The translations under genes and the position numbers were made by a program. Shown here one piece after another: positions 120-41,781 of a DNA stretch of 41,781 nucleotides. The notes beneath the pieces were generated by a model. That model was not told where the DNA came from, ran no database searches, and saw only the letters and a program-made list of their open reading frames with translations. This DNA comes from a virus. The stretch is from positions 1-41,781 of IMG/VR virus record IMGVR_UViG_3300045988_112575. One strand, given 5' to 3'. How positions within the stretch are numbered: position 1 is the stretch's first letter; each line of letters starts with the position of its first letter.

Positions 120-306
120 GCAGATCGCTAAAGTCTCCAAGGCTTGGGACTTCGACACAGAAAAAGCCGCCCAGTTTTATGAACTCGGTGACAGTGATAC
201 AGCGATTGCCAACAAACTGAAGTGTCGCAAGCAATCTATCCTGGACTGGCGCAAGGCTACCGGGCGCGTGTCCAACTACATCCGCCGGCGGGAGGGTAAG
301 CTATGA
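1..306 (+). CDS. 3' portion of junction-spanning ORF (starts at ATG 41513; 151 aa once the overlap is collapsed); hypothetical early protein, Cys-containing N-part, HTH-like C-part
   Basis: Frame of ORF 40-306 is open back to base 1 and continues the 41513-41781 frame; stop TGA 304-306 overlaps next start (ATGA). Confidence 0.6.
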   Translation: MYILVEGHRRGVPMKPGGGCSKKTVGRAKSGKFILTDTQKQIAKVSKAWDFDTEKAAQFYELGDSDTAIANKLKCRKQSILDWRKATGRVSNYIRRREGKL

Positions 307-497
307 TTTACCGCATCCGACACGTCCGTCTGAACGACGATGGACATGTCTGCTGGGAAGATCACCGGCGGACAGAGTACAAATCTGACCAGAAGACCCT
401 GTTAGGCCAGATCATCACGCGAAAAATCAGAGGCGGCAAAACCCGGACCTACCGCGTGGAAGCTGCCAAGTTAGAACCAAAGGAGATGCTGAAATGA
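303..497 (+). CDS. hypothetical early protein (64 aa, basic)
   Basis: ATG overlaps upstream stop; part of tightly packed same-strand early operon. Confidence 0.5.
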   Translation: MIYRIRHVRLNDDGHVCWEDHRRTEYKSDQKTLLGQIITRKIRGGKTRTYRVEAAKLEPKEMLK

Positions 498-661
498 ACG
501 CTGTACAAGCCATCAAAGCCAAGCACGATCTTGACGCTCTGCTCAGAGCCATCGCCCCCCGCATGGAGGAAAACGTCAAAGCCCGTCGTGCCAAGGAAGC
601 CAGCCGTCACAAGCTCAACGCCGTCATGGCTAAGGCAGGGATTCCCCTGCGGGTGCTGTGA
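494..661 (+). CDS. hypothetical small protein (55 aa; below ORF-track cutoff)
   Basis: ATG 494 preceded by AAGGAG; translation MNAVQAIKAKHDLDALL...; stop TGA 659-661 overlaps next ATG. Confidence 0.45.
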   Translation: MNAVQAIKAKHDLDALLRAIAPRMEENVKARRAKEASRHKLNAVMAKAGIPLRVL

Positions 662-798
662 TGACCCACGACCATCCCGTGTGTCGGCGCTGTATCCGGT
701 GTTCCAAACACTGGAATGTGAGCGCCATCGAACCAGGCCCGGACGTGTATGTCTGTCCGGTCTGTGCAAACTTTTTGGAAAGGATGCTAAAGAAATGA
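661..798 (+). CDS. small zinc-ribbon protein (45 aa; CxxC...CxxC)
   Basis: MTHDHPVCRRCIRC...VCPVCANF; start and stop both overlap neighbours as ATGA. Confidence 0.45.
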   Translation: MTHDHPVCRRCIRCSKHWNVSAIEPGPDVYVCPVCANFLERMLKK

Positions 799-971
799 AA
801 AAGACCGTAGAGATCACTCGCGAGATCATCCATGACTTCATCATGGATGAACCCAGCGACTTCGTGGATTTCTGCCAGAAGCTTTATGAGGCAGAGGTCA
901 TGGCCTATCTGGACTACCGTCAGCAGGAGTTTGACGAGTGGATTGATAGCCGCATCAGAGGGGAGGGTTAA
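795..971 (+). CDS. hypothetical small acidic protein (58 aa)
   Basis: Internal ATG of ORF 531-971 (MKKTVEITREII...); coupled ATGA start. Confidence 0.45.
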   Translation: MKKTVEITREIIHDFIMDEPSDFVDFCQKLYEAEVMAYLDYRQQEFDEWIDSRIRGEG

Positions 972-973
972 GC

Positions 974-1636
974 ATGGGGATTCCCGTTCTGGTGTACGGC
1001 AAGTCCGGCAGCGGCAAAAGCCGTTCGCTCAAAAACTTCTCTCCCGACGAGCTGGTCCTGATTAACCCCATCGGCAAACCCCTTCCCTTCCGGGGCAAGT
1101 TCAAGTGGACGCTCATCTCGGACAGCTACGCCGATATCAAGAACTGGTTGGCGAACATGCCGGTCGATACCGCAGTCATTGATGATGCCGGTTACCTTCT
1201 GACCAACCACTTCATGCGTGGCCACAGCGGCCCCAAAGGTGGCGGGAATACGTTCGACTTGTTCAACGCTATCGCGGACGAATTCTGGCAGCTCATGTCG
1301 TTCATTCAATACCAGCTCCCTGCCAACAAGATCGTGTATATCATCATGCACGAACAGGCAGACGACTATGGAAACACCAAGCTCCGCACCATCGGCAAGC
1401 TGCTGGACGAGAAAGTCTGCATTGAGGGCATGGTTACTATCTGCCTGCACTGCTTGGCAGACAAAGACCATCACTATTTCCGCACGAACTCAGACGGTGG
1501 CGACATCTGCAAGTCGCCCGAAGACCTCTTCCCTCTTGAGATTGAGAACGACCTCAAGGCGGTGGACACGGCTATCCGCGAATATTGGGGCATCGCCCCG
1601 GAACCCGCACAGGAGGCCCCCAATGGGCAGAGCTGA
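974..1636 (+). CDS. Sak4-like RecA-fold ATPase (AAA_24-type phage recombination/replication ATPase)
   Basis: Walker A VLVYGKSGSGKS, Walker B-like AVIDDAGYL; GGGGAGGG RBS; adjacent to DUF669-type gene as is typical. Confidence 0.75.
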   Translation: MGIPVLVYGKSGSGKSRSLKNFSPDELVLINPIGKPLPFRGKFKWTLISDSYADIKNWLANMPVDTAVIDDAGYLLTNHFMRGHSGPKGGGNTFDLFNAIADEFWQLMSFIQYQLPANKIVYIIMHEQADDYGNTKLRTIGKLLDEKVCIEGMVTICLHCLADKDHHYFRTNSDGGDICKSPEDLFPLEIENDLKAVDTAIREYWGIAPEPAQEAPNGQS

Positions 1637-1871
1637 CAGTGGCGTTGCGCGGTATGTGTTTGCCAGCGCCACGGTGAGAGTGGGGTTCCCGGTAGACTTC
1701 CGGGGGAATGTATCCCTTAGTTGCTACCAGTGCCCCTTCTACCAAAGAAACTATCGCTCTTGTGGGTTAAACAAGAGAATAGTAGCCTATCCCGAACACT
1801 ATGTAGGGGACGAGTGCCCCTTAGAAATCGAAAAGGAGACTGACGAACATGAGAAAGATCAACTGGGATAA
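1623..1871 (+). CDS. Cys-rich small protein (82 aa)
   Basis: ATG 1623 within ORF 1218-1871 frame; SCYQCPFY...SCG...ECP motif; overlaps both neighbours slightly. Confidence 0.4.
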   Translation: MGRADSGVARYVFASATVRVGFPVDFRGNVSLSCYQCPFYQRNYRSCGLNKRIVAYPEHYVGDECPLEIEKETDEHEKDQLG

Positions 1872-2427
1872 CGTGCAGGAATCCACCGGCTTCTCTAACC
1901 CCGAACCCGGCGGCTACATCGCGCAGATCACCGCCGTGGAGGACGTGGAGAGCAAGGAGTATCTGCTCATCGAGTGGGAGTTCGCTTCCGGTGAGTGGAA
2001 AGGTGAGAACGGCAAGACCTACGCCCGTGCCGGGTTCTGGCCTACCCCCTATTTCGCTTCTTACAAGGAGGCTGCGCTTGGCTTCTTCAAGCACTTCAAG
2101 AAGGCTGTGGAAGAGTCCAACCGTGGATATGTATTCACCGAGGACAACGTGCAGGGCCTGCGTGGCCGCTACTTTGGCGTTGTTCTGGGTGAGGAAGAGT
2201 ACCAGAAGAAGGACGGTACCATTGGCACCCGCCTCAAGGCTGTGAACTCTGCCAGTATCCAGGACATCCAGACCGGCAACTTCAAGGTTCCCAAAAAGAA
2301 GCTTCTCGGTGGTGGTGCAGTTACCTCGGCCCATTCCTACGCTTCCCCCGCTCCCGCCGCTGACCCCTTCACCAGTGACAACCCCTTCCAGGACATGACC
2401 GAGGACAAGAGCGAGTTGCCCTTCTAA
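1849..2427 (+). CDS. DUF669-type phage single-stranded DNA-binding protein
   Basis: N-terminal F-x-P-x-P-x-G-x-Y pattern typical of DUF669; acidic C-terminal tail ending ...DKSELPF like SSB tips. Confidence 0.65.
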   Translation: MRKINWDNVQESTGFSNPEPGGYIAQITAVEDVESKEYLLIEWEFASGEWKGENGKTYARAGFWPTPYFASYKEAALGFFKHFKKAVEESNRGYVFTEDNVQGLRGRYFGVVLGEEEYQKKDGTIGTRLKAVNSASIQDIQTGNFKVPKKKLLGGGAVTSAHSYASPAPAADPFTSDNPFQDMTEDKSELPF

Positions 2428-2439
2428 GGAGGTGTTTGT

Positions 2440-2739
2440 ATGAGCGTGAGTATCAGGCAAAGAGAGGGCTTTATCGCTATGCCGAACGACCACCTCTTTG
2501 ACAGTGAGTTATCCCTTGAAGCTAAAGGGCTTCTGAGCCTGTTCTACGAACTTTCTCAGAGCGGAATCCCGTTCAACGATGCAAGAGTATTCGATCTGTC
2601 CAACAGCAAGGCAGGTGAGTTTATCTCTGCTGTCATTGAGCTTAAAGATCGTGGGTACATTGACTTTGATGTAAAACCAGAGGACTTCTTCGCAGAAGCA
2701 AGCCTTTGGATGAAGCGTCGGAGGGAATATCGTGAGTAA
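2440..2739 (+). CDS. winged-helix replication-initiator-like protein (short paralog of next gene N-domain)
   Basis: FIAMPNDHLFDSELSLEAKGLLSLFYEL resembles the N-terminus of 2732-3442. Confidence 0.5.
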   Translation: MSVSIRQREGFIAMPNDHLFDSELSLEAKGLLSLFYELSQSGIPFNDARVFDLSNSKAGEFISAVIELKDRGYIDFDVKPEDFFAEASLWMKRRREYRE

Positions 2740-3442
2740 TATCGTGAGTAATATCGTCCGAGTAGACAGAAACAAAAATTACACGACAATGGGCAACTAT
2801 CACTTGCGAGACAAGAACCTGTCGAACAAGGCGAGGGGTTTGTTGTCTACCGTTCTGTCTCTACCCCCTGAATGGGACTACACTGTTCGCGGCCTTGCGG
2901 CTATTTGCAAGGATGGAGTAGACAGCATCGCTTCTCAACTCAAAGAGTTGGAACGATACGGCTATCTTACCAGAAGTCAGAGGCAGGAAACGGACGGGAA
3001 GTTCTCTGGAATGGAATATACGTTCCGAGAGCGGCCGTGTACGGGTTTCCAGTGTACGGTTAACCCCGCACAAATAAATACTGATAAAGTAAATACTGAA
3101 TATATCCCCCCTGTATCTTTAGATAAATCTAAAGATACCCCCCAGAGGGGGGAACCCACTCCAAAGCGAGAGCGAAAGAGATTTACTCCTCCCAAGCTGG
3201 AAGAGGTCGAAGCTTACTGTCGGGAAAGAAACAACTCTGTCGATGCTTCCCGATTCCTGGACTACTACGAAGCAGTAGGCTGGAAGGTGGGCAAGCAGCC
3301 CATGAAGGACTGGAAAGCAGCTGTCCGAACTTGGGAACGCAGAGACGCAAGCAACGCCTCTTCCCAAGCAAAAAAAGAAGAGGCTTACCGCGCCCCGGTC
3401 TGTGTCGGGTTCGATGAGGAAGGGAGGGGCATTTACAAGTGA
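2732..3442 (+). CDS. phage replication initiator / replisome organizer (DnaD-like C-terminal domain)
   Basis: YTTMGNYHLRDKNLSNKARGLLSTVLSLPPEWDY wHTH N-domain; C-terminal FTPPKLEEVEAYC...FLDYYEAVGWKVGKQPMKDWKAAVRTWERR. Confidence 0.7.
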   Translation: MSNIVSNIVRVDRNKNYTTMGNYHLRDKNLSNKARGLLSTVLSLPPEWDYTVRGLAAICKDGVDSIASQLKELERYGYLTRSQRQETDGKFSGMEYTFRERPCTGFQCTVNPAQINTDKVNTEYIPPVSLDKSKDTPQRGEPTPKRERKRFTPPKLEEVEAYCRERNNSVDASRFLDYYEAVGWKVGKQPMKDWKAAVRTWERRDASNASSQAKKEEAYRAPVCVGFDEEGRGIYK

Positions 3443-4731
3443 TGAACTCAGCCTATTCCCTGGAGGCTGAAAACTCTGTGCTGGGTTCCATTCTCCTGGA
3501 CGCTTCGGTTTTTCCGGGCGTTCGGGAGGCCCTCACAGCAGAGGATTTCAGCAACACCGTAAACAAGGCCATTTATAAGGCCGCTGAGGGCCTTTTCAAC
3601 GCAGGTAAGGTAGTTGACCCGGTAAGCATCAAAAGGGCCGCAGAAGCGATTCTAGGCGGGTCTGAGGATGTGAATCTGAATGACTACATGCTTCAGCTCC
3701 TGGAAATCACACCGACAGCCGCCAATGTGAGCGAATACGTCAAGTTGGCGCGAGACGCTTCTATGCGCCGACAGCTTATCGAGATTGCCCGGAAGATCGA
3801 GACGTATGTAGAGAGCTACTCCCCGCCTAGAGAAGTGATCGCATCCGCTCAGAAAGCCTTGCAAGGCATTGAAAGCAACGAGAGGAACCGGGAAACCATC
3901 AGTTTCTCCGATGCTCTGACTGACTTCCTGGTCCTTCAGGACGAGATTCAGACCGGTGTATGTTTATTCATAAAAACTGAATATAAATACATTGACAGAG
4001 TGCTTGGAGGTGGCTTGCTCAACAGCGGTTTCTACCTGCTGGCAGGCCGTCCGGGTATGGGTAAGACCACGCTGGGCTTGAACATCGTCCGTAAGGTAGC
4101 GAAGAAGGGATTGCCGGTGCTGTTTGTTTCTCTGGAAATGTCCAAAGAACAGATCACGCAGAAGCTTCTAGCTCTGGAAACCGGCCTCTCCACGCAGGAG
4201 CTTGTCGGAAAGATGGACGCCCAAGCCGTGGACAGGGTGACAGAAGCGGTTACGCAGATACACGAGTTACCGCTCACTTTGAACCAAAAGACGGACGCTA
4301 CGGTATCCGATATAGCAAACATGGCTCGCGCTGTGAAGGGGCTAGCTTTAATATGTGTGGACTACGTAGGTCTGATTGAACCAGACGACAAACGTGCAAA
4401 GCCTTATGAAGGTGTGTCTCAGGTATCCCGTGATCTAAAGCGTTTAGCCATGCGTCTGAATATCCCTATTCTGGGTCTAGCACAGTTAAACCGGGAAGTT
4501 ACTGGCCGTAGCGACAAACGTCCTCTGATTTCTGACCTTCGTGATTCCGGCAGGTTGGAACAAGATGCGAACGGGATTATCTTACTGCACAGACCAGATT
4601 ACTACGACCCAAACTACAAGCACGATGGAATCTCTCCTGTGATTCTAGAGGTTGACATTGCTAAGAATAGACACGGCCCCACCGGTAAGGTAACACTGGA
4701 CTACTACCTGACCAACGGCCGGATTCTTTAG
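3439..4731 (+). CDS. dnaB: replicative DNA helicase DnaB
   Basis: N-terminal AENSVLGSILLD, Walker A GRPGMGKTT, LEMS, VDYVGLI, QLNREV, RDSG motifs. Confidence 0.92.
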   Translation: MMNSAYSLEAENSVLGSILLDASVFPGVREALTAEDFSNTVNKAIYKAAEGLFNAGKVVDPVSIKRAAEAILGGSEDVNLNDYMLQLLEITPTAANVSEYVKLARDASMRRQLIEIARKIETYVESYSPPREVIASAQKALQGIESNERNRETISFSDALTDFLVLQDEIQTGVCLFIKTEYKYIDRVLGGGLLNSGFYLLAGRPGMGKTTLGLNIVRKVAKKGLPVLFVSLEMSKEQITQKLLALETGLSTQELVGKMDAQAVDRVTEAVTQIHELPLTLNQKTDATVSDIANMARAVKGLALICVDYVGLIEPDDKRAKPYEGVSQVSRDLKRLAMRLNIPILGLAQLNREVTGRSDKRPLISDLRDSGRLEQDANGIILLHRPDYYDPNYKHDGISPVILEVDIAKNRHGPTGKVTLDYYLTNGRIL

Positions 4732-19693: not shown

Positions 19694-22507
19694 TTATCCA
19701 ATGACCAAAACCGAATATTTCACGCCCTTCGCATTACATACATAGTCATTTGCGGCATCGGTGTTGTACCAGGAATAGGAGCAACCGTCTTCGCTTATTT
19801 TTCCGAACGTACTAACACCGTATGATTGTGACGAATACGCGCCGTTTCTATAAAATGCCGCATAGTTTGTATACTCCGTTTTTAGGTCAGCGGCGTTAAC
19901 CATCAGATTGCTATTATCAGCATAATACGCACCGGAGTACAGCATAATCATAGCTTTTATTCTAAACGGTGCGGTTATCGTTATTGGATTTGCGGCCCCA
20001 TATACCCCGACTCCAATATAGCTCACAACCTGCACCCTCGCTTTATCCCCCAGCTTTCCCAGGTACTCGATAGTGGTGGCAGCGGGGATAGCGGGGTAGC
20101 CGGTGACGGGTTGGTAGCGGTCGATGGTGACCCATCTCGACGAGCTACTGATAGCGCTTATTATCTCCACGCCTGTTTCGGCAGACGCGGGGATATAAAC
20201 AATTTGGTCCGGCAACCTGTACGCAGACCCAGCGCTACTGGAAACGCCATATCTAGTCAATAAGACGAATTTTCCGAGGAGTTCAGTTGCGGCAGAATTA
20301 AAACTCTGGTTGGTCTGCGGGGAACTCAACGATACGCTGCCTGTATCGGAAACAGAGAGAGAACTTGAAACGTTGAGCGCCGTGTCGGTGTTTCCACTGC
20401 TGCCACGCCCAACGATAAACTTTCCCGTCACCATATCCCCCAACGTATACCCCGCCTCCTTCGCATCATCTCCCTCCTGATACGCATTGGGGTTTGTTGA
20501 TACAGGGTAGGTGGTGGTTGTTCCGGCGGGGATTTCGGGAGTTACAGGATAACCGACCACTTTCTGTGCGGCGTTGAAATAGCTAGGGGTTCCGCTGGAT
20601 AATATGCCATAGGTAAATGTAGTTCCAGATGCTACATAGTAAACAACATTACGTTCAATGTTAATTGTTCCTCGATTTGCATACGAATCATCTGTTACGG
20701 AGAAAAACCTATTTCCGCTTCCGATAATATTATCAACGGATATAGTTCCATTACCAGAGACAATGACATCCTTGGTTTCAGGGGATACCATGGAAACATT
20801 GCCAGCTGAATCAACAGATACCGTCTTGCTAACGCTTAACCTGTATATCCACGCCGAATTACTACTATCGGTTGGTGTCAAAAACGCTGTTTTTGTGGCA
20901 GTTCCTAGATTATACCCAGCAGGCACCTCCGGCGTTGGTTCCGTCGTCACCACCGTCTTCCTCCACACATGCAAATCCCCCGCATGTGCCAAAGCGTTGA
21001 ACATGTCATTGGGGGTGGCGGAAGAGGGAAGGCCGATGATGGGAGGGGTGGTGGGTTTGAGGATGTCTCCTACTTTGCTGTTGAGCAAACTCAGAGGAAC
21101 AGGATGGTTGCTCGCTGTGGGCGACAGGATGGAGAGAGGACCGGTCATTGTTCCGCCTGCGAGAGCAAGGTAGTTTTTCAGTAGTTCTGCATGGGCGTCG
21201 GTGGCGGTGTCGTGGGCGCTGACTGCTGTGGTGGCGGTTCCCTTGGGGTCTGCACCGGTTTGTTCGGCGGTGACTTTATGGGGGTTGCTGTGATTAACGA
21301 TATGGCTGGGGACGTTGGAGAGGGCGGCGTTGAAGGCGGTCTCCGTGCCGGTGTAGCCTGCTTCTACGGCAGCGGTAAAGGCACTTTTTCCGTTTTGGCC
21401 GCTCACACCTGCCGGGCCTTGGGGCCCTTCCGGGCCGGTCTCGCCTTGGGGGCCTTGCACACCTTGGATACCTTGGGGGCCTTGCTTGCCCTGTTTGCCC
21501 TCCGGGCCGGTCTCACCCTGCACACCCTGGGGGCCTTGGGGACCTTGGGGGCCGGTGGGGCCTTGGAGCTTGCCAACGGAAGTCCAGTCGCCCTGTGTCT
21601 CCGACCAGATGTAGCACTCCCCGTCGGCTTTGACCATGTACATTTTGTCGTTGCCGTTGGGAATGGCGTTTTTCAGCGCGGCAAGGGTGCTGTAAATGTC
21701 CTCGATGTAGAGGCTGGTGCCGTCCTTACCGGGGGCACCGGCAGGACCTTGGGCACCGGTGGGGCCTTGTGTCCCTGCTTTCCCCTGCGGACCCTGGGGG
21801 CCGGTAGGGCCTTGTTCGCCCTGTTCTCCCTGCACACCCTGTACGCCGGGGATGCCCTGGATACCCTGCGGGCCTCTGGCACCCTGTGCGCCCTGTTCGC
21901 CCTGGACCCCCTGCGGACCCTGCGGCCCACGGACAGACACGGCCTGGGGCGCAATGGCGCTGTCCTGGATGGTGAAGGACATGACGCCGTTTGTGTCGAT
22001 GTTGGGAACGATGCTGGGGCCGGTGGCTCCTCGGTCTCCCTTGTCGCCCTTCACGCCCTGGATACCCTGTTCTCCCTGGGGGCCGGTGTCACCCTTCACG
22101 CCGTGGACGATGGTCTTGGTGCCGTCGTCGGAGACTTCGCAGTTGTCAAACTGCATCCGTCCGCGCTGGGGCAGGGTCTCCCCAGCGGGGTTCATAATGA
22201 TGTGACCGGCAGAACCGGATGCCTGCCAAGTCACGCCGTCCTGGCTGGTTTCCAGTACGCGATCTGCGTTCAGGCGGATGTACTTGAAACCTGCCCCTTC
22301 AGGGAGCTGTACGCTCGTCTCCACGCCCAGCGTTTCCAGAGCGGGAAGCAAGGTGGTGTTGATATACTCCTGGATGGTCAAAGCCCCTTCGTCGAACTTC
22401 TTCTTCAGTTCGGCAGCAGACAGACCGCCTACGTCGTTGGGTTCGTCGTCCAGCTTCTGAACGATGTTTAAGTCCTTGGTCAGCTTTTCTAAACTCATAG
22501 GTATCAC
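19694..22507 (-). CDS. tail fibre with collagen-like triple-helix repeats
   Basis: Three G-X-Y runs (aa 136-164, 193-263, 315-373), long beta-rich C-terminal part. Confidence 0.85.
21389..22102 (-). repeat. Collagen-like G-X-Y coding repeats within the tail fibre gene
   Basis: [19 protein letters not shown]..., [22 protein letters not shown]... Confidence 0.9.
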
Positions 22508-33019: not shown

Positions 33020-33035
33020 CCCCTTTCTTATTCGG

Positions 33036-33125
33036 CGCGAGGAGGAGGATTTGAACCCCCGCAGGCTATATAGCCCCTAGCGCATTTCAAGTGCACCCTC
33101 TTCAACCAGCCTTGAGTATCCCCGC
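33036..33125 (-). tRNA. tRNA-Ser (anticodon UGA), class II with long variable arm
   Basis: GCGGGGA acceptor, TGGTTGAA D-loop, anticodon loop CTTGAAA, variable arm GGCT-ATAT-AGCC, T-arm GGGGGTTCAAATCCTCC, discriminator G; CCA not encoded. Confidence 0.85.
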
Positions 33126-34613: not shown

Positions 34614-34838
34614 TTATATGCTCTCTGTGCCCTCTGGTGTGGGCTGTGCGGCGTCCTGGTGCTGTGCCATAAAATCATCTACTGCTGCCCGGAAAACCGC
34701 GTTGGGCGTGGTTCCTGCGGCTTTGCAGGCCGCCTTGAATTCGTCCGCTGCATCCCGCCGCATTTTACAGCCTAATACCGTGGTGGCCTTGGCTATGTAT
34801 TTGTTGTTTGCCCGTCGCTTTGCGTCCGTAAGCGTCAT
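34614..34838 (-). CDS. ribbon-helix-helix (Arc/CopG-like) DNA-binding protein; likely regulator of the divergent accessory operon
   Basis: KRRANNKYIAKATTVLGCKMRRDAADEFKAACKAAGTTPNAVFRAAVDDF pattern. Confidence 0.65.
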   Translation of the reverse strand: MTLTDAKRRANNKYIAKATTVLGCKMRRDAADEFKAACKAAGTTPNAVFRAAVDDFMAQHQDAAQPTPEGTESI

Positions 34839-34883
34839 TGGTTCACCCCCTAGATTCAGTATTTATATTGTACCATACCCCGT

Positions 34884-34967
34884 CAAGGTTTAACCATGTA
34901 CAAATTGCCTAAATACATGGTTTAACCTTTGTCTATTCCGTCTATTGCAATCCATGGTTAAACCATG
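34884..34967. promoter_or_regulatory. Three operator-like palindromes CATGGTT-N-AACCATG
   Basis: 34884-34898 CAAGGTTTAACCATG, 34916-34930 CATGGTTTAACCTTT, 34953-34967 CATGGTTAAACCATG. Confidence 0.65.
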
Positions 34968-34973
34968 TATTAT
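34945..34973 (+). promoter_or_regulatory. Promoter of the ArdA/accessory operon (TTGCAA-N17-TATTAT)
   Basis: The 17-nt spacer is exactly operator copy 3. Confidence 0.6.
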
Positions 34974-35033
34974 AAAGCCATCAAAGGGAAACACCCCAAC
35001 GGACAGCCCGACAGGGCGGAAAGGACAAACACC

Positions 35034-35204
35034 ATGAAAAAGATCATCGCTTGCATCTGCATCGCACTCGCGGCCTTCGCCGCCGGACACCTCGCCACGA
35101 TCTACACGCTGGAGATCGAGACAGACGGCGACGGAGACAGCGCCATTGTTACCAGCTTCGGCCAGGAGCACTTCTACGGCATCAACGGCTACGAGATCGG
35201 CTAA
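35034..35204 (+). CDS. small membrane-anchored/secreted protein (56 aa)
   Basis: MKKIIACICIALAAFAAG signal/TM; ATG 35034 after GGAAAGGA. Confidence 0.5.
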   Translation: MKKIIACICIALAAFAAGHLATIYTLEIETDGDGDSAIVTSFGQEHFYGINGYEIG

Positions 35205-35278: not shown

Positions 35279-35782
35279 ATGTTAAAAATCTTTGTGAATA
35301 CCTGGGGCAACTACAACAGGAACGGCGCAGAAGGCGGAGAGTGGCTCACTCTCCCGATGGAAGAAGAAGAACTCGATGCTAACCTCTCCCGCATCGCTCA
35401 GAAAATGGGCGATAACTCCCCTGAGTGGGCCATCCACGATTACGAATGGGACAGAGGCTTTTACTCTCCCATCGGTGAGTATGAGAGCATCTCCCGCCTC
35501 AACGATATGGCTCGCGACCTCGCAGACATGGACGAGTACGATTTAGAGAAGTTGGACGCGATGATTGAGGCGTTCAGCTACGACCCAGCGGAAGCTCTTT
35601 ATCGGTTCGACGAATACACCTACTACAACGGCCAGACACTCCGAGAGGTAGCGGAAGAGCTTGTAGAGGAGTGCTACGACATCCCAGAAATCGCACTTCG
35701 CTACTTTGATTACGACGCTTTTGCAAGAGATTTGGAATTTGACGGATACACAGAAACCAAAAACGGTGTCCTTGCTTGTTAA
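35279..35782 (+). CDS. ardA: ArdA antirestriction protein
   Basis: MLKIFVNTWGNYNRNG..GEWLTLPM, EWAIHDYE, very acidic, RYFDYDAFARDLEFDGY; ATG 35279 after AGGAGG. Confidence 0.8.
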   Translation: MLKIFVNTWGNYNRNGAEGGEWLTLPMEEEELDANLSRIAQKMGDNSPEWAIHDYEWDRGFYSPIGEYESISRLNDMARDLADMDEYDLEKLDAMIEAFSYDPAEALYRFDEYTYYNGQTLREVAEELVEECYDIPEIALRYFDYDAFARDLEFDGYTETKNGVLAC

Positions 35783-35872
35783 TAGCCGAAACGCCCCTTC
35801 CGGGCGTCTGCCGGAAATAGCCTACCGGCACTGATGAGGCAGGCTAAACACAAGATCAGGAGGATAAATACC

Positions 35873-36064
35873 ATGAAAACCTATTATTTCCCCGACAATG
35901 AACACTACGACGCCTTCTTCGGCGCTTATACCCCTATCTGCGTAGACCTAGCCGAGTTGGAGCGTCTGGCCCGTGACTGGGAGATCGACCTCGACGAACT
36001 GCTAGAGCAAATGCACGAGGCCGGAGACGGCGAGATCGCCGAGTACGGCGTTTTTGATAGCTGA
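35873..36064 (+). CDS. small acidic protein (63 aa), anti-defence candidate
   Basis: ATG 35873 after AGGAGG; strongly acidic. Confidence 0.5.
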   Translation: MKTYYFPDNEHYDAFFGAYTPICVDLAELERLARDWEIDLDELLEQMHEAGDGEIAEYGVFDS

Positions 36065-36140: not shown

Positions 36141-36473
36141 ATGAAAAAGAATATTGAAAGAATTGTCGTGACAGACCGGTCCGACTATGACCCCAACCTT
36201 TGCTGTACCGGCGGCAGGTACGCATACTACACGGAGTACACAAAACAGGATGACGGTCTGTGGACCGTTAGCTATGCAACAAGTGCAGATTTCGAGTTCT
36301 GTTCTTGTTGCGGCAGGTTCGGCTGCGACGAGTGCGACGAGTACGAGCGCATCTCGACGAGCGAGATGCTAGAGCGTCTCGCAGAGGACGCGGCCCAGGA
36401 TGGTGTTACTATCGAGTGCTACGACTCCTACCCGGAGCAGGATGATAAACTCATCATCCGGGTTGACGAATAA
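36141..36473 (+). CDS. acidic Cys-cluster protein (110 aa)
   Basis: CSCCGRFGCDECDEYE cluster; GGAGG RBS. Confidence 0.55.
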   Translation: MKKNIERIVVTDRSDYDPNLCCTGGRYAYYTEYTKQDDGLWTVSYATSADFEFCSCCGRFGCDECDEYERISTSEMLERLAEDAAQDGVTIECYDSYPEQDDKLIIRVDE

Positions 36474-36491
36474 AAAACGGAGGTTTCTACC

Positions 36492-37007
36492 ATGAAAAAA
36501 GTAAATGAGTTTTTCTCCAACATCGACCATCTTCCGCTGAGCAAGCGCAACGCGCTGCGGGATGAAGCAAAAAGCACCTTCTTGCAGGTCGAGCACCCTA
36601 GCACCTACGCCCACTTCTTTAGTTGCTTGCCCGAAGCTATCCCGGAAGAGTTAGAAAGCCGCTGCTATTTCGCAGCCTGCCTCCACTGCTTGTGGCCGGT
36701 TGGCACCACCAACCGCCTGCCGGTAGAAGAAATCCTGTGGAATATAGCAAGGAAAGATGCGCAGAAGCAGAAGAAGCTGGAGCACGATTTGAAAATCCTG
36801 CTTGATTACCAGTGGGGAACCGGCGACATCCTGCCTGGTAAAATCTATCACCTTGCCAAGATTTTCAAAAATGAGGGCTATGCTATCGACTGCGCCGCTC
36901 TGCTGGACGATCTGATAAACTGGGACGACATGAAACAAACCGTGCAACTTAAATGGTCTCGCGCTGTTTACATGAAACCGGGCACAGACGGAATTTTATA
37001 TTGCTGA
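36492..37007 (+). CDS. orphan Cse2/CasB (Cas11, type I-E small subunit)-like protein
   Basis: Length 171 aa, helical; C-terminal IDCAALLDDLINW..(7)..VQLKWSRAVY resembles the Cse2 family signature as recalled from memory; no other cas genes. Confidence 0.4.
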   Translation: MKKVNEFFSNIDHLPLSKRNALRDEAKSTFLQVEHPSTYAHFFSCLPEAIPEELESRCYFAACLHCLWPVGTTNRLPVEEILWNIARKDAQKQKKLEHDLKILLDYQWGTGDILPGKIYHLAKIFKNEGYAIDCAALLDDLINWDDMKQTVQLKWSRAVYMKPGTDGILYC

Positions 37008-37050
37008 CGCCCCTAGACAGCCCAGGAAGGATATGTTGAAGAATGAGGCC

Positions 37051-37104
37051 GGGCCGGGTACTGGTTTTACCCGGCCCGATCATTTTCGTGGCCCCACGAA
37101 AATG
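37051..37104 (+). terminator. Two consecutive 10-bp hairpins ending the accessory operon
   Basis: GGGCCGGGTA-CTGGTTT-TACCCGGCCC then CATTTTCGTG-GCCC-CACGAAAATG. Confidence 0.6.
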
Positions 37105-37126: not shown

Positions 37127-37435
37127 ATGTACTATTATCCATTTAAGTACGACCAGATTAAACATCGTTGGCTCTGCATACGTTCCGCTATGCGTATAAA
37201 CGTGGAGACCTGCGAGAGAGCCCTTTCAAGAGCACACGGGCGCAAACGTGATTACATAGTGCGTGCATATAACAATGCAAACGATAAAATAGATGGGTGC
37301 ATTGATGGTTTCATCGATTTCTTTTTCCGCTACGTACACCCCGATTTTTGGAAGGGCGAACCATGGGAAGAGGATATGAAAAATTTTTATAGCATATACG
37401 CAGGCATTGATGAAGATGAACCCGAGTTGTTTTAA
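37127..37435 (+). CDS. hypothetical protein (102 aa), AT-richer moron-like gene
   Basis: AAAGGAGG RBS; follows terminator. Confidence 0.5.
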   Translation: MYYYPFKYDQIKHRWLCIRSAMRINVETCERALSRAHGRKRDYIVRAYNNANDKIDGCIDGFIDFFFRYVHPDFWKGEPWEEDMKNFYSIYAGIDEDEPELF

Positions 37436-37748: not shown

Positions 37749-38876
37749 TTATTTATCAACGCTTTCCTCGTTTTCTACATCATCCTGACAGAGAAATTGA
37801 TTCAGCCTCTCCGTTGCCGCTTTCTTCTGCCGTTTCCGAATATGCGTATACACGTTAAGCGTGGTTTGTATATCCGCATGTCCGAGAAGATCTTGCATAT
37901 CCTTCATTCCAACGCCAGCTTCATATAAAATCGTGGCGTAATAGTGGCGAAGTTGGTGAGATGTAACAGTCACTCTCCATTTGTCCAACCCGCGCAGTTT
38001 CTTTTTCCCCTCCGGCTGTTCTTTCTCTTCTGCCAACCCCGCAGAGATGCACCACCGTTTCCATGCGCGGTGATACTCATTTGCTGTCATATAGCCGTTT
38101 TTCCCCTTAAATATCATCCCGCTTTTGTTGCGTGGAAGCCTTTGCTTCAGTGGTTCCAACAGGGATATTTCCCGTTCTCCTGCATCCGTTTTCGGCGTTT
38201 TCACGCGCGGGATACCATTGATAAATTCAACGGAATGTTTCACACTGATCAAATTTTTCTTCCAGTCGAAATCTTCCCAGCGCAGGGCCAGCAGTTCGGC
38301 GCGGCGCATCCCAGTAAACGCCTGGAGCAGCGGAAACAGCCCAAATCCTTCACCACCAAATGCCGCCCGCACCTTATCCATTTGTTCGTCTTCCGGCGGC
38401 TCCCTAGTCCCTTTTGGCAGGTTTCCGGGTAGCTTTGCAGATCGCGCTGGGTTGTATTTAATCATACGCTTCAAAATAGCGTAATCAAAAATCCCGTTCA
38501 TCACGTTCTTCCGCTTAGACACAGCACTAAACCCCAACCCCTTCGCCGCTGCGCTCTTTAAAAAGTCCATGATCTCATCAGCGTAAATGTCACCAATGTT
38601 TCGCCCGGAAAACCAGTCCTTCGCTTCGCGCAGAGAGGGCATGTACCCGTGTTCCGTGTTCCAGCCGACCTTATCCACTTCTATCTTAAAATTGAGCCAT
38701 TCGTCCGCCACCGTCTCAAACAGCACAGCCTTCTCCTTGGCTTCCTCTTCGGCCCGGCTCCACTCCGCCATTTTCCGCCTAACTTCCTTTTGAGTTTTTC
38801 CGTAGAAGTATTTGGGTTTCGCCATCCCCGGCAGCTTCACTTGCTCCTGCCACCGTCCGTCTTTTCGTTTGATCAT
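37749..38876 (-). CDS. int: tyrosine recombinase / phage integrase
   Basis: N-terminal SAM-like domain, GMRRAELLAL, HQLRHYYAT, LLGHADIQTTLNVYTH catalytic R..HxxR..H..Y. Confidence 0.92.
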   Translation of the reverse strand: MIKRKDGRWQEQVKLPGMAKPKYFYGKTQKEVRRKMAEWSRAEEEAKEKAVLFETVADEWLNFKIEVDKVGWNTEHGYMPSLREAKDWFSGRNIGDIYADEIMDFLKSAAAKGLGFSAVSKRKNVMNGIFDYAILKRMIKYNPARSAKLPGNLPKGTREPPEDEQMDKVRAAFGGEGFGLFPLLQAFTGMRRAELLALRWEDFDWKKNLISVKHSVEFINGIPRVKTPKTDAGEREISLLEPLKQRLPRNKSGMIFKGKNGYMTANEYHRAWKRWCISAGLAEEKEQPEGKKKLRGLDKWRVTVTSHQLRHYYATILYEAGVGMKDMQDLLGHADIQTTLNVYTHIRKRQKKAATERLNQFLCQDDVENEESVDK

Positions 38877-41516: not shown

Positions 41517-41781
41517 GCGATTCCGGGCACACTTCCCGAAAACCTGGGCGAAATCAGCGCTGGGACGTGAACGCGATCCGCTGGAACGCTGTTGCAGGTA
41601 CCGACCGCAAGCACACCAAGGGCTGTGAGGGATGCCGCTATCATGACTATTACGGGGATTGTATTTACATCCTCGTAGAGGGCCACCGAAGAGGCGTCCC
41701 CATGAAACCAGGCGGCGGATGCAGCAAAAAGACCGTGGGCAGAGCCAAGAGTGGGAAGTTTATTCTCACCGACACCCAGAA
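41513..41781 (+). CDS. 5' portion of junction-spanning ORF (continues at base 120 after collapsing the overlap, ends 306)
   Basis: ATG 41513 overlaps upstream stop (ATGA); 41702 equals base 40 and is in frame (189 nt). Confidence 0.6.
   Translation, partial: MSDSGHTSRKPGRNQRWDVNAIRWNAVAGTDRKHTKGCEGCRYHDYYGDCIYILVEGHRRGVPMKPGGGCSKKTVGRAKSGKFILTDTQ
41663..41781. repeat. Terminal direct repeat copy 2
   Basis: Identical to bases 1-119. Confidence 0.95.

Follow-up and report, generated by a model that had tools for sequence, protein, structure and literature searches.

Cas11L, an orphan Cas11e homolog in a temperate gut phage and a candidate anti-CRISPR against type I-E Cascade

Why would a temperate phage encode the small subunit of a type I-E Cascade outside any type I-E operon? 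The question is raised by one gene in IMG/VR virus record IMGVR_UViG_3300045988_112575, the whole 41,781 nucleotides of which were analysed (hereafter, the window). The gene, which we call Cas11L, occupies positions 36492..37007 on the plus strand, and an original prediction made from the letters alone had taken it for an orphan Cse2/CasB (Cas11)-like gene whose product might poison Cascade by mimicking a subunit. Sequence, profile, structure and context all agree with that identity, and we lean, with modest assurance, toward an explanation based on sequence features and on analogy with known inhibitors: that Cas11L is a phage-captured, diverged Cas11e that may act as a dominant-negative small-subunit anti-CRISPR protein (CRISPR denoting short palindromic repeats that are clustered and regularly interspaced) against type I-E Cascade.

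The gene itself is as had been claimed. An intact open reading frame (ORF) of 171 codons, beginning with ATG, encodes a 171-amino-acid protein that is all-helical in an AlphaFold2 (AF2) model (9 helices). A GGAGG ribosome-binding site, read directly from the sequence, lies 8 nucleotides 5' of the ATG (36479..36483, plus strand), and a terminator-like hairpin of 11 pairs, 9 of them G-C (37050..37078, plus strand; consensus scan only), lies 3' of the gene and closes the transcription unit. Both motifs quoted in the original prediction occur in the translation as written, YFAACLHCLW at residues 59-68 and the C-terminal motif at residues 132-160 (IDCAALLDDLINWDDMKQTVQLKWSRAVY). The latter is a genuine signature of the Cse2 family: the best three PDB sequence matches of Cas11L are Cse2 crystal structures, and they align at this motif.

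Profile comparisons of Cas11L alone pointed to the same family. Six PADLOC Cas11e models matched it (best E value 7e-7; these models carry no curated cut-off), as did PF09485 (21.6 bits, E value 3e-4) and TIGR02548 (21.3 bits over residues 38-158). The profile check proposed with the original prediction thus returned Cse2, with no rival family among the matches, but both scores fell below the curated cut-offs, which are 24.6 for PF09485 and 28.5 for TIGR02548. A word-indexed search returned only three close relatives (92%, 92% and 68% identity), none of which has a name or a precomputed Pfam domain. An exhaustive search with a profile of the four-sequence clade recovered 161 representatives at an E value of 1e-3 or lower, and 89 of 90 sampled relatives matched PF09485 (best E value 3e-27). 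By tblastn, Cas11L is 45% identical over 163 amino acids (E value 3.8e-43) to the Cas11e encoded at locus L010 (here and below, L and P numbers are our handles for loci and proteins), a Bacillota metagenome-assembled genome (MAG), JAUNCL01, in which Pfam assignments verified the operon Cas3-Cse1-Cse2-Cas7e-Cas5e-Cas6e. With these intermediate sequences the homology is unambiguous; judged by sequence, Cas11L is a true homolog, by common descent, of Cas11e/Cse2.

No close relative emerged when GTDB species genomes were first scanned. A scan of GTDB genomes did yield five loci: one each in the Bacillota MAG, a Lachnospiraceae MAG and a Pseudoflavonifractor, and two in Butyricicoccus pullicaecorum (L013 being that of strain DSM 23266). 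At every one of these loci the relative of Cas11L sits in the same canonical order as in L010 (two established by Pfam, the rest by tblastn), and typical I-E repeat arrays lie beside each of the four examined for them, L010 (17 repeats), L014 (39), and L012 and L013 (two or three each). No match to Cas11L was found by tblastn of GenBank phages and PLSDB plasmids, nor in BFVD viral structures and PHROGs, and two peptide patterns, a search of limited sensitivity, found no ordinary Clostridial-type Cas11e in IMG/VR. Three long relatives, P0048 (691 amino acids), P0075 (674) and P0080 (690), carry the Cas11e-like region at the C-terminus, with matches at residues ~520-672, and may be Cas8e-Cas11e fusions.

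The predicted fold is that of Cse2. With an alignment of 90 sequences, AF2 returned a model of Cas11L with a predicted local distance difference test score (pLDDT) of 92.4 and a predicted template modelling score (pTM) of 0.88; with 4 close homologs alone the model was unusable (pLDDT 44.5). In a Foldseek search of the PDB, the top 14 matches were exclusively Cse2/CasB, either as free chains or within the Thermobifida fusca, Escherichia coli and I-E-HNH Cascades, with template modelling (TM) scores of 0.53-0.75 (best match 0.71/0.75), and the next matches had probabilities of 0.07 or lower. The structural check suggested with the original prediction therefore recovered the all-helical, two-lobed fold of Cse2. 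Because the AF2 alignment consists mostly of true Cas11e, this match is not independent of sequence homology, which lessens its weight; the sequence evidence for homology stands on its own.

If Cas11L is a Cas11e by descent, is it truly an orphan, and in what kind of genome? The window is the entire metagenome contig ERZ27229654 k119_346175. Its positions 1-119 are identical to 41663-41781, and since this 119-nucleotide terminal overlap equals the assembler's k, the window is a circularly closed, complete genome of about 41.66 kb. It encodes terminase, portal, holin, amidase, DnaB, RusA, cI/Cro-like repressors, an antirepressor and a tyrosine integrase, and it is a complete temperate gut phage. 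Near-identical phages are represented by four uncultivated viral genomes (UViGs) of about 41 kb in IMG/VR and by several gut-metagenome contigs in ENA, and exact-protein matches of the integrase and portal are found only on phage-sized metagenome contigs. One related contig, L021 (ERZ1034917 NODE_114, 78,580 bp, coverage 1011x), is almost twice the phage length and carries a 93% identical Cas11L in the same gene order; its integrase is only 79% identical to that of the window, and there is no host flank in the part examined. L021 might be a concatemer, or else a larger relative that integrates at another site.

Cas11L is encoded outside a type I-E operon rather than between cas8e (cse1) and cas7e. 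Searching with Cas3, Cas8e, Cas7e, Cas5e and Cas6e from four verified operons by tblastn, we detected none of these genes, either in the window or among 12 related contigs (E values above 0.08), and the same search was positive at 19 of 19 control loci. The statement that no other cas gene is present therefore stood for type I-E; for other types it extends to the precomputed Pfam labels, which cover about half of the genome and include no cas gene, no gene-by-gene scan having been made. The window also lacks a CRISPR array, and a search that tolerated up to 3 mismatches found no I-E repeat standing alone; a rival reading as an RNA anti-CRISPR or a mini-array was rejected on these grounds.

The phage gene is maintained. 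Its ORF is intact in 12 phage genomes, with identity falling to 68% in a different element, and pairwise ratios of nonsynonymous to synonymous substitution rates (dN/dS) among ten phage copies are 0.03-0.15. Cas11L is under strong purifying selection and is a functional gene. In effect this refutes non-function, and it is barely credible that Cas11L is without function, whether as the decaying remainder of a cas operon that was excised imprecisely or as a helical protein resembling Cas11e by chance: the Pfam and TIGRFAM scores below their curated cut-offs would be expected of either, but the tblastn match to a bona fide Cas11e, the low dN/dS over many pairs, the dozen intact copies and the good ribosome-binding site all speak against both.

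What has selection preserved, and what has it changed? Isoelectric point (pI) and net charge of the whole protein do not separate the orphans from operon-encoded Cas11e, but a column-by-column comparison does. At 75 positions that are near-invariant among 15 close operon-encoded Cas11e proteins, the phage clade retains 45 residues and alters 30. Retained are the hydrophobic core, the CLHCLW motif and the C-terminal signature. Among the altered positions are five conserved basic residues, all lost in the phage clade (R24 to D/E, R40 to A/G, R99 to D, R120 to H and K128 to E/D), together with G27 (to K/R) and N145 (to D), both invariant in close operon-encoded Cas11e.

Two of these five positions correspond to the arginines by which E. 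coli Cse2 docks on Cas7. Asp24 of Cas11L (codon 36561..36563, plus strand) aligns with the Cas7-docking Arg27, and Asp99 (codon 36786..36788, plus strand) aligns with Arg101, which is essential for Cas7 docking and holds flipped bases. The correspondences were obtained with three alignments: hhalign of sequence against profile, MAFFT on 129 sequences, and profile-profile hhalign, the last against 30 E. coli-type CasB (97.2% probability, E value 4e-11). One small MAFFT alignment had placed Arg101 discordantly, and the profile-profile alignment then paired it with Asp99. The E. coli query was identical to chain 4qyz_B at 160 of 160 positions. A third basic residue, R119 in E. coli, is kept as K123 in Cas11L.

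In E. coli, Cse2 R27 and R101 form salt bridges with Cas7 D22 before target binding and afterwards hold the flipped-out bases of the target strand (van Erp et al. 2015, PMC4787809). The R101A substitution abolishes immunity, and Cascade carrying R27A/R101A purifies without Cse2 (PMC4787809). Related Clostridial Cas7e proteins retain the motif NLNRD[D/E] at D21-D22 and the aromatic residue at W199, and since the acidic partner and the aromatic are both kept, the docking logic should hold in these systems as well.

Both arginines are strongly conserved where Cas11e is encoded in an operon. They are invariant among the 30 E. coli-type CasB, arginine occupies both docking sites in 16 of 16 operon-encoded proteins that are 28-45% identical, and position 24 is arginine in 15 of 15 close operon-encoded Cas11e and D or E throughout the window clade. 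Column 99 is basic in 93% of 85 relatives. An acidic residue in that column occurs ten times among the 129 sequences, every time in an orphan. The residues at positions 24 and 99 are D/D in the window clade, E/D in P0003 (the 68% identical relative), K/D in P0004 and H/E in P0027.

How many times did such orphans arise? P0004 lies on a 75-kb phage-like contig (L004) and P0027 on a contig with a phage-type helicase; neither has close relatives in IMG/VR. In a neighbour-joining tree the window clade had 100% bootstrap support, the window clade plus P0004 had 85%, and this group was sister to Clostridial operon-encoded Cas11e. P0027 fell elsewhere, next to the operon-encoded P0044, and all orphans were united in only 2% of bootstraps. 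The separate position of P0027, together with its Glu at position 99, suggests from the sequences that capture took place independently at least twice, with convergence on an acidic residue in the place of R101. Two circumstances weaken this suggestion: the tree is neighbour-joining only and could be distorted by the long orphan branches, and the sample is small, with three orphan lineages and about two independent origins.

The elements that carry two of these orphans have features of their own. L001, which encodes P0003, is a different mobile element with an AcrVA2-like gene (PF26125) at 2622-3659 on the minus strand, a PIN/PhdYeFM toxin-antitoxin pair, a Y1 transposase and an integrase; the AcrVA2-like gene gives this element anti-CRISPR content of its own and speaks in favour of an anti-defence setting for these orphans. 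In L004, the contig of P0004, the anaerobic ribonucleotide reductase NrdD is encoded in three pieces at 212-3485 with an HNH homing-endonuclease ORF between them, and a reverse transcriptase gene lies near the split NrdD.

If Cas11L is the dominant-negative inhibitor we favour, its retained surfaces would allow it to engage a partner of Cas11e still: the host Cas11e in a head-to-tail arrangement, the C-terminal bundle of Cas8e, or the register that Cas11e adopts on Cas7 after target binding, via K123. It would be unable, however, to form the Arg-Asp docking contacts or those that hold flipped bases, and for this reason a Cascade containing, or titrated by, Cas11L would fail to stabilise and lock the R-loop and would not license Cas3. 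Two variants can be envisaged. In the first, Cas11L would insert into Cascade's belly, using contacts between Cas11 proteins or with Cas8e, or else, by means of K123, in the register adopted after binding, and acidic residues located where arginines should grip flipped-out bases would block target binding and R-loop locking. In the second, Cas11L would sequester free Cas11e or Cas8e into complexes unable to dock on Cas7. The targets are likely type I-E systems of gut Clostridia, because their Cas11e proteins are the nearest relatives of Cas11L. Type I-C had also been named as a possible target in the original prediction; type I-E is likely, and nothing points to I-C. That mobile elements have made Cas11e inhibitors at least twice by the same route, keeping the fold and partner surfaces and reversing the charge of the docking arginines, is possible but doubtful.

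There is precedent for inhibitors derived from Cascade subunits. AcrIB4 of Listeria is homologous to the 90 residues at the C-terminus of Cas8b, a domain that is the type I-B equivalent of Cas11, and it blocks binding of target DNA without keeping Cascade from assembling (Katz et al., bioRxiv 10.1101/2023.06.24.545427); the C-terminus of Cas8b is described as separately translated, as Cas11b, in PMC11899642. Like Cas11L, AcrIB4 is encoded on a mobile element, descends from the small-subunit module of a type I Cascade, makes up a separate clade and is situated in an anti-defence locus, and it is about 38% identical to its Cas parent. Unlike Cas11L, which is a I-E protein of 171 amino acids and a candidate known from sequence, AcrIB4 belongs to type I-B, has 88 amino acids and has had its inhibition validated by experiment. 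The two proteins show no similarity in sequence (hhalign probability 0.3%, E value 0.2; BLASTP E value 0.19).

A second precedent concerns the way in which a subunit can be made defective. AcrIB3, a Cas5 homolog, and AcrIB4, a homolog of the Cas8b C-terminal domain, inhibit DNA binding by type I-B Cascade from within the complex without preventing its assembly, and AcrIB3 replaces Cas5 in that complex and lacks an 18-residue hook that binds Cas8b (PMC13131331). AcrIB3 shares the defective-subunit logic proposed for Cas11L, in that the fold is mostly kept and one interface element is lost (the hook there, the docking arginines here); it differs in subunit and subtype, and it co-purified with Cascade. 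The Cas11e position of type I-E Cascade is itself vulnerable, as AcrIE8.1 is described as binding Cas11 of that complex (PMC12883894). AcrIE8.1 and the other AcrIE proteins have the same presumed target complex as Cas11L and are set apart from it by their descriptions, as small binders rather than as Cas homologs or subunit mimics.

By descent, then, Cas11L is a Cas11e, and its features agree with a class that Katz et al. defined, that of anti-CRISPRs derived from Cas proteins and of orphan viral cas genes. With Cas11e/Cse2/CasB (PF09485, TIGR02548; PDB 2zca, 4h7a, 3wa8, 5u07 and 4qyz) it has in common its ancestry (35-45% identity to Clostridial operon members), a length of about 170 amino acids, the all-helical fold (TM scores 0.65-0.75), the central CLHCLW helix and the C-terminal signature ID-x3-LL-x-DL-x2-W ... 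VQ-x2-W-x-R-x2-Y. It departs from that family in three of the defining features tested (curated score, operon context and docking arginines) and in belonging to a clade of its own with P0004. With the Cas-derived class it has in common a viral location without array or operon, a separate clade in the neighbour-joining tree and, with moderate support, a location among anti-defence genes. The orphan viral cas genes compiled from IMG/VR (358 loci; Katz et al., Table S3) likewise lie on viral contigs without arrays or operons, and some adjoin anti-defence genes. The type I-E entries of that table include cas3 and cse1; cse2, cas11 and casB are absent from it, as are all four UViGs in which Cas11L occurs. 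A non-exhaustive search of the literature found no report of a phage-borne Cas11e.

Several observations weigh against the proposal that Cas11L inhibits type I-E Cascade. Of 181 spacers taken from related I-E arrays, none matches the phage family, so the spacers give no sign that these phages are exposed to type I-E. In three distant Cas11e proteins encoded in operons, the residue at position 99 is not basic (Met in L016 and L017, Leu in L018), so a basic residue is not universally required there. Because Cas11L has lost the element by which the subunit is held to the backbone, its incorporation into Cascade is uncertain, unlike that of AcrIB3. Finally, loss of the docking arginines could equally mean that Cas11L no longer contacts Cascade at all.

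This last point is the core of the strongest alternative, namely that Cas11L was exapted to a role unrelated to CRISPR, as a helical adaptor, a nucleic-acid-binding accessory protein or an inhibitor of another defence, and that disappearance of the arginines marks its release from Cascade. We regard this alternative as unlikely but deserving of serious attention. The loss of three further conserved basic residues besides the docking arginines, the spacers without a match and the heterogeneity of the neighbouring cassettes (for example, a J-domain protein in L006) are all compatible with it, and AcrVIA2, a Cas3 homolog that inhibits type VI, is a precedent for a Cas homolog acting on a different system. 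It accounts less well for the retention of 45 of the 75 near-invariant Cas11e positions, including the entire C-terminal signature, which seemingly exceeds what maintenance of the fold needs, or for the acidic residue that two independent orphan lineages have at one anchor site, a pattern that looks like selection on an interface rather than drift. Cas11L also shares its accessory unit with ArdA.

It is far less probable that Cas11L is a working small subunit with which the phage, to its own advantage, equips the Cascade of its host or a partial CRISPR system carried by a phage. Phages that carry compact or partial CRISPR-Cas systems are described in PMC10161043, and the fold and much of the sequence of Cas11L are conserved, as such pro-CRISPR hijacking would need. 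This is a complete genome, however, without another type I-E cas gene, an array or a solitary repeat; both arginines that hold Cse2 on Cas7 (PMC4787809) are charge-reversed; and the invariant Gly27 and Asn145 have been replaced. Readings other than the inhibitor and the three alternatives considered are, taken together, quite improbable.

If Cas11L does inhibit Cascade, a Cas11e-derived anti-CRISPR would extend to type I-E and to the phages of gut Clostridia a principle that, to our knowledge, has been shown only recently, only for type I-B and type VI, and in Listeria. Among class 1 systems type I-E is the best studied, and it would be useful to have a genetically encoded means of switching off Cascade tools based on it. 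Were the recipe of retained fold and reversed docking charge true, Cas11L would be the founding member of a family of Cas11e-derived anti-CRISPRs ('AcrIE' from Cas11e), and there would be a general, designable route to dominant-negative inhibitors of class 1 effectors from their own small subunits. The replacement of two Cas7-docking arginines by Asp provides a hypothesis at the level of residues. Current annotation misses the family, whose members have no precomputed Pfam match and no name in any source, and a profile of the Cas11L clade would reveal further candidates. Even a non-inhibitory Cas11L would clearly exemplify how phages can exapt a Cas subunit and keep it under strong selection.

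The surroundings of Cas11L are those of a variable accessory island, with the order orf79, variable slot, self-cleaving ribozyme, orf63/76, optional orf110, Cas11L, hairpin and optional orf102. Cas11L is kept in every related phage copy while the island around it varies. The unit is flanked by a divergent small gene and by the tyrosine integrase (37749..38876, minus strand; PF00589, precomputed), which is a conserved neighbour in related phages. Cas11L had been placed last in an operon that starts with ArdA. The ArdA anti-restriction gene is indeed present (35279..35782, plus strand; PF07275, E value 1.6e-31; phrog_2059, E value 3.7e-23) and the hairpin closes the unit, but ArdA is preceded by orf79 (34965..35204, plus strand), the first ORF of the unit, which encodes 79 amino acids with a hydrophobic, signal-like segment and is conserved across related phages. 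A sequence scan found promoter-like sites near orf79, at 34842-34869 and 34945-34973.

ArdA, moreover, is a facultative cassette: of the 12 related phage genomes, the window included, only 4 have it (the window, L020 and L032/L033). The slot holds ArdA in the window, L020 and L032, a gene for the J-domain protein with a 151-amino-acid ORF in L006, and a cassette of similar size (about 1.1 kb) in L007, L009, L019 and L021. In most related phages the cassettes neighbouring Cas11L have no known anti-defence role, and support for an anti-defence location is accordingly moderate.

Between the variable slot and orf63/76 lies a type II hammerhead ribozyme (35784..35848, plus strand; Rfam RF02276, 49.8 bits against a gathering score of 37), which occurs in the window and in seven related phage loci. 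Besides that of the window, self-cleaving ribozymes are found in L002 (9289-9343), L008 (9114-9168 and 9641-9705), L006, L007, L009, L019, L020 and L021; L002 has a twister-P5 ribozyme in place of the hammerhead, and L008 has both classes. The occurrence of two unrelated classes of self-cleaving ribozyme at one site suggests that cleavage of the polycistronic RNA just 5' of the orf63-Cas11L block is itself selected.

The small acidic proteins attributed to the operon are also present. The product of orf63 (35873..36064, plus strand; 76 amino acids if it starts at 35834) has a pI of 4.05-4.5 and no family match, and orf63/76 accompanies Cas11L in every related locus that reaches far enough upstream, the 1.2-kb fragment L003 being too short. 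Directly 5' of Cas11L, the facultative cassette orf110 (36141..36473, plus strand; present in the window, L002/L003 and L032) encodes an acidic protein (pI 4.15), likewise without a family match, and its 8 cysteines, grouped in CC, CxCC and CxxC-like clusters, make it a possible zinc-binding protein. The facultative orf102 (37127..37435, plus strand), which follows the hairpin, is found only in the window, L006 and L032/L033.

The divergent gene at the 5' flank of the unit is a 74-amino-acid ORF (34614-34838, minus strand) with weak similarity to ribbon-helix-helix/ParG proteins (E value 0.13). It is highly variable (33-99% identity) among otherwise near-identical phages, and an Aca-like role in regulating the island is conceivable.

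Two further features of the phage genome lie outside the island. A gut-2 RNA (Rfam RF02990; 32817-32864, minus strand) adjoins a tRNA-Ser(TGA) gene (33034-33125, minus strand), and the pair is kept in several related phages. An ORF of 937 amino acids (19694-22507, minus strand) contains G+C-rich, collagen-like repeats (Gly-X-Y type) with a period of 9 nucleotides at 21399-22107, and probably encodes a tail fibre.

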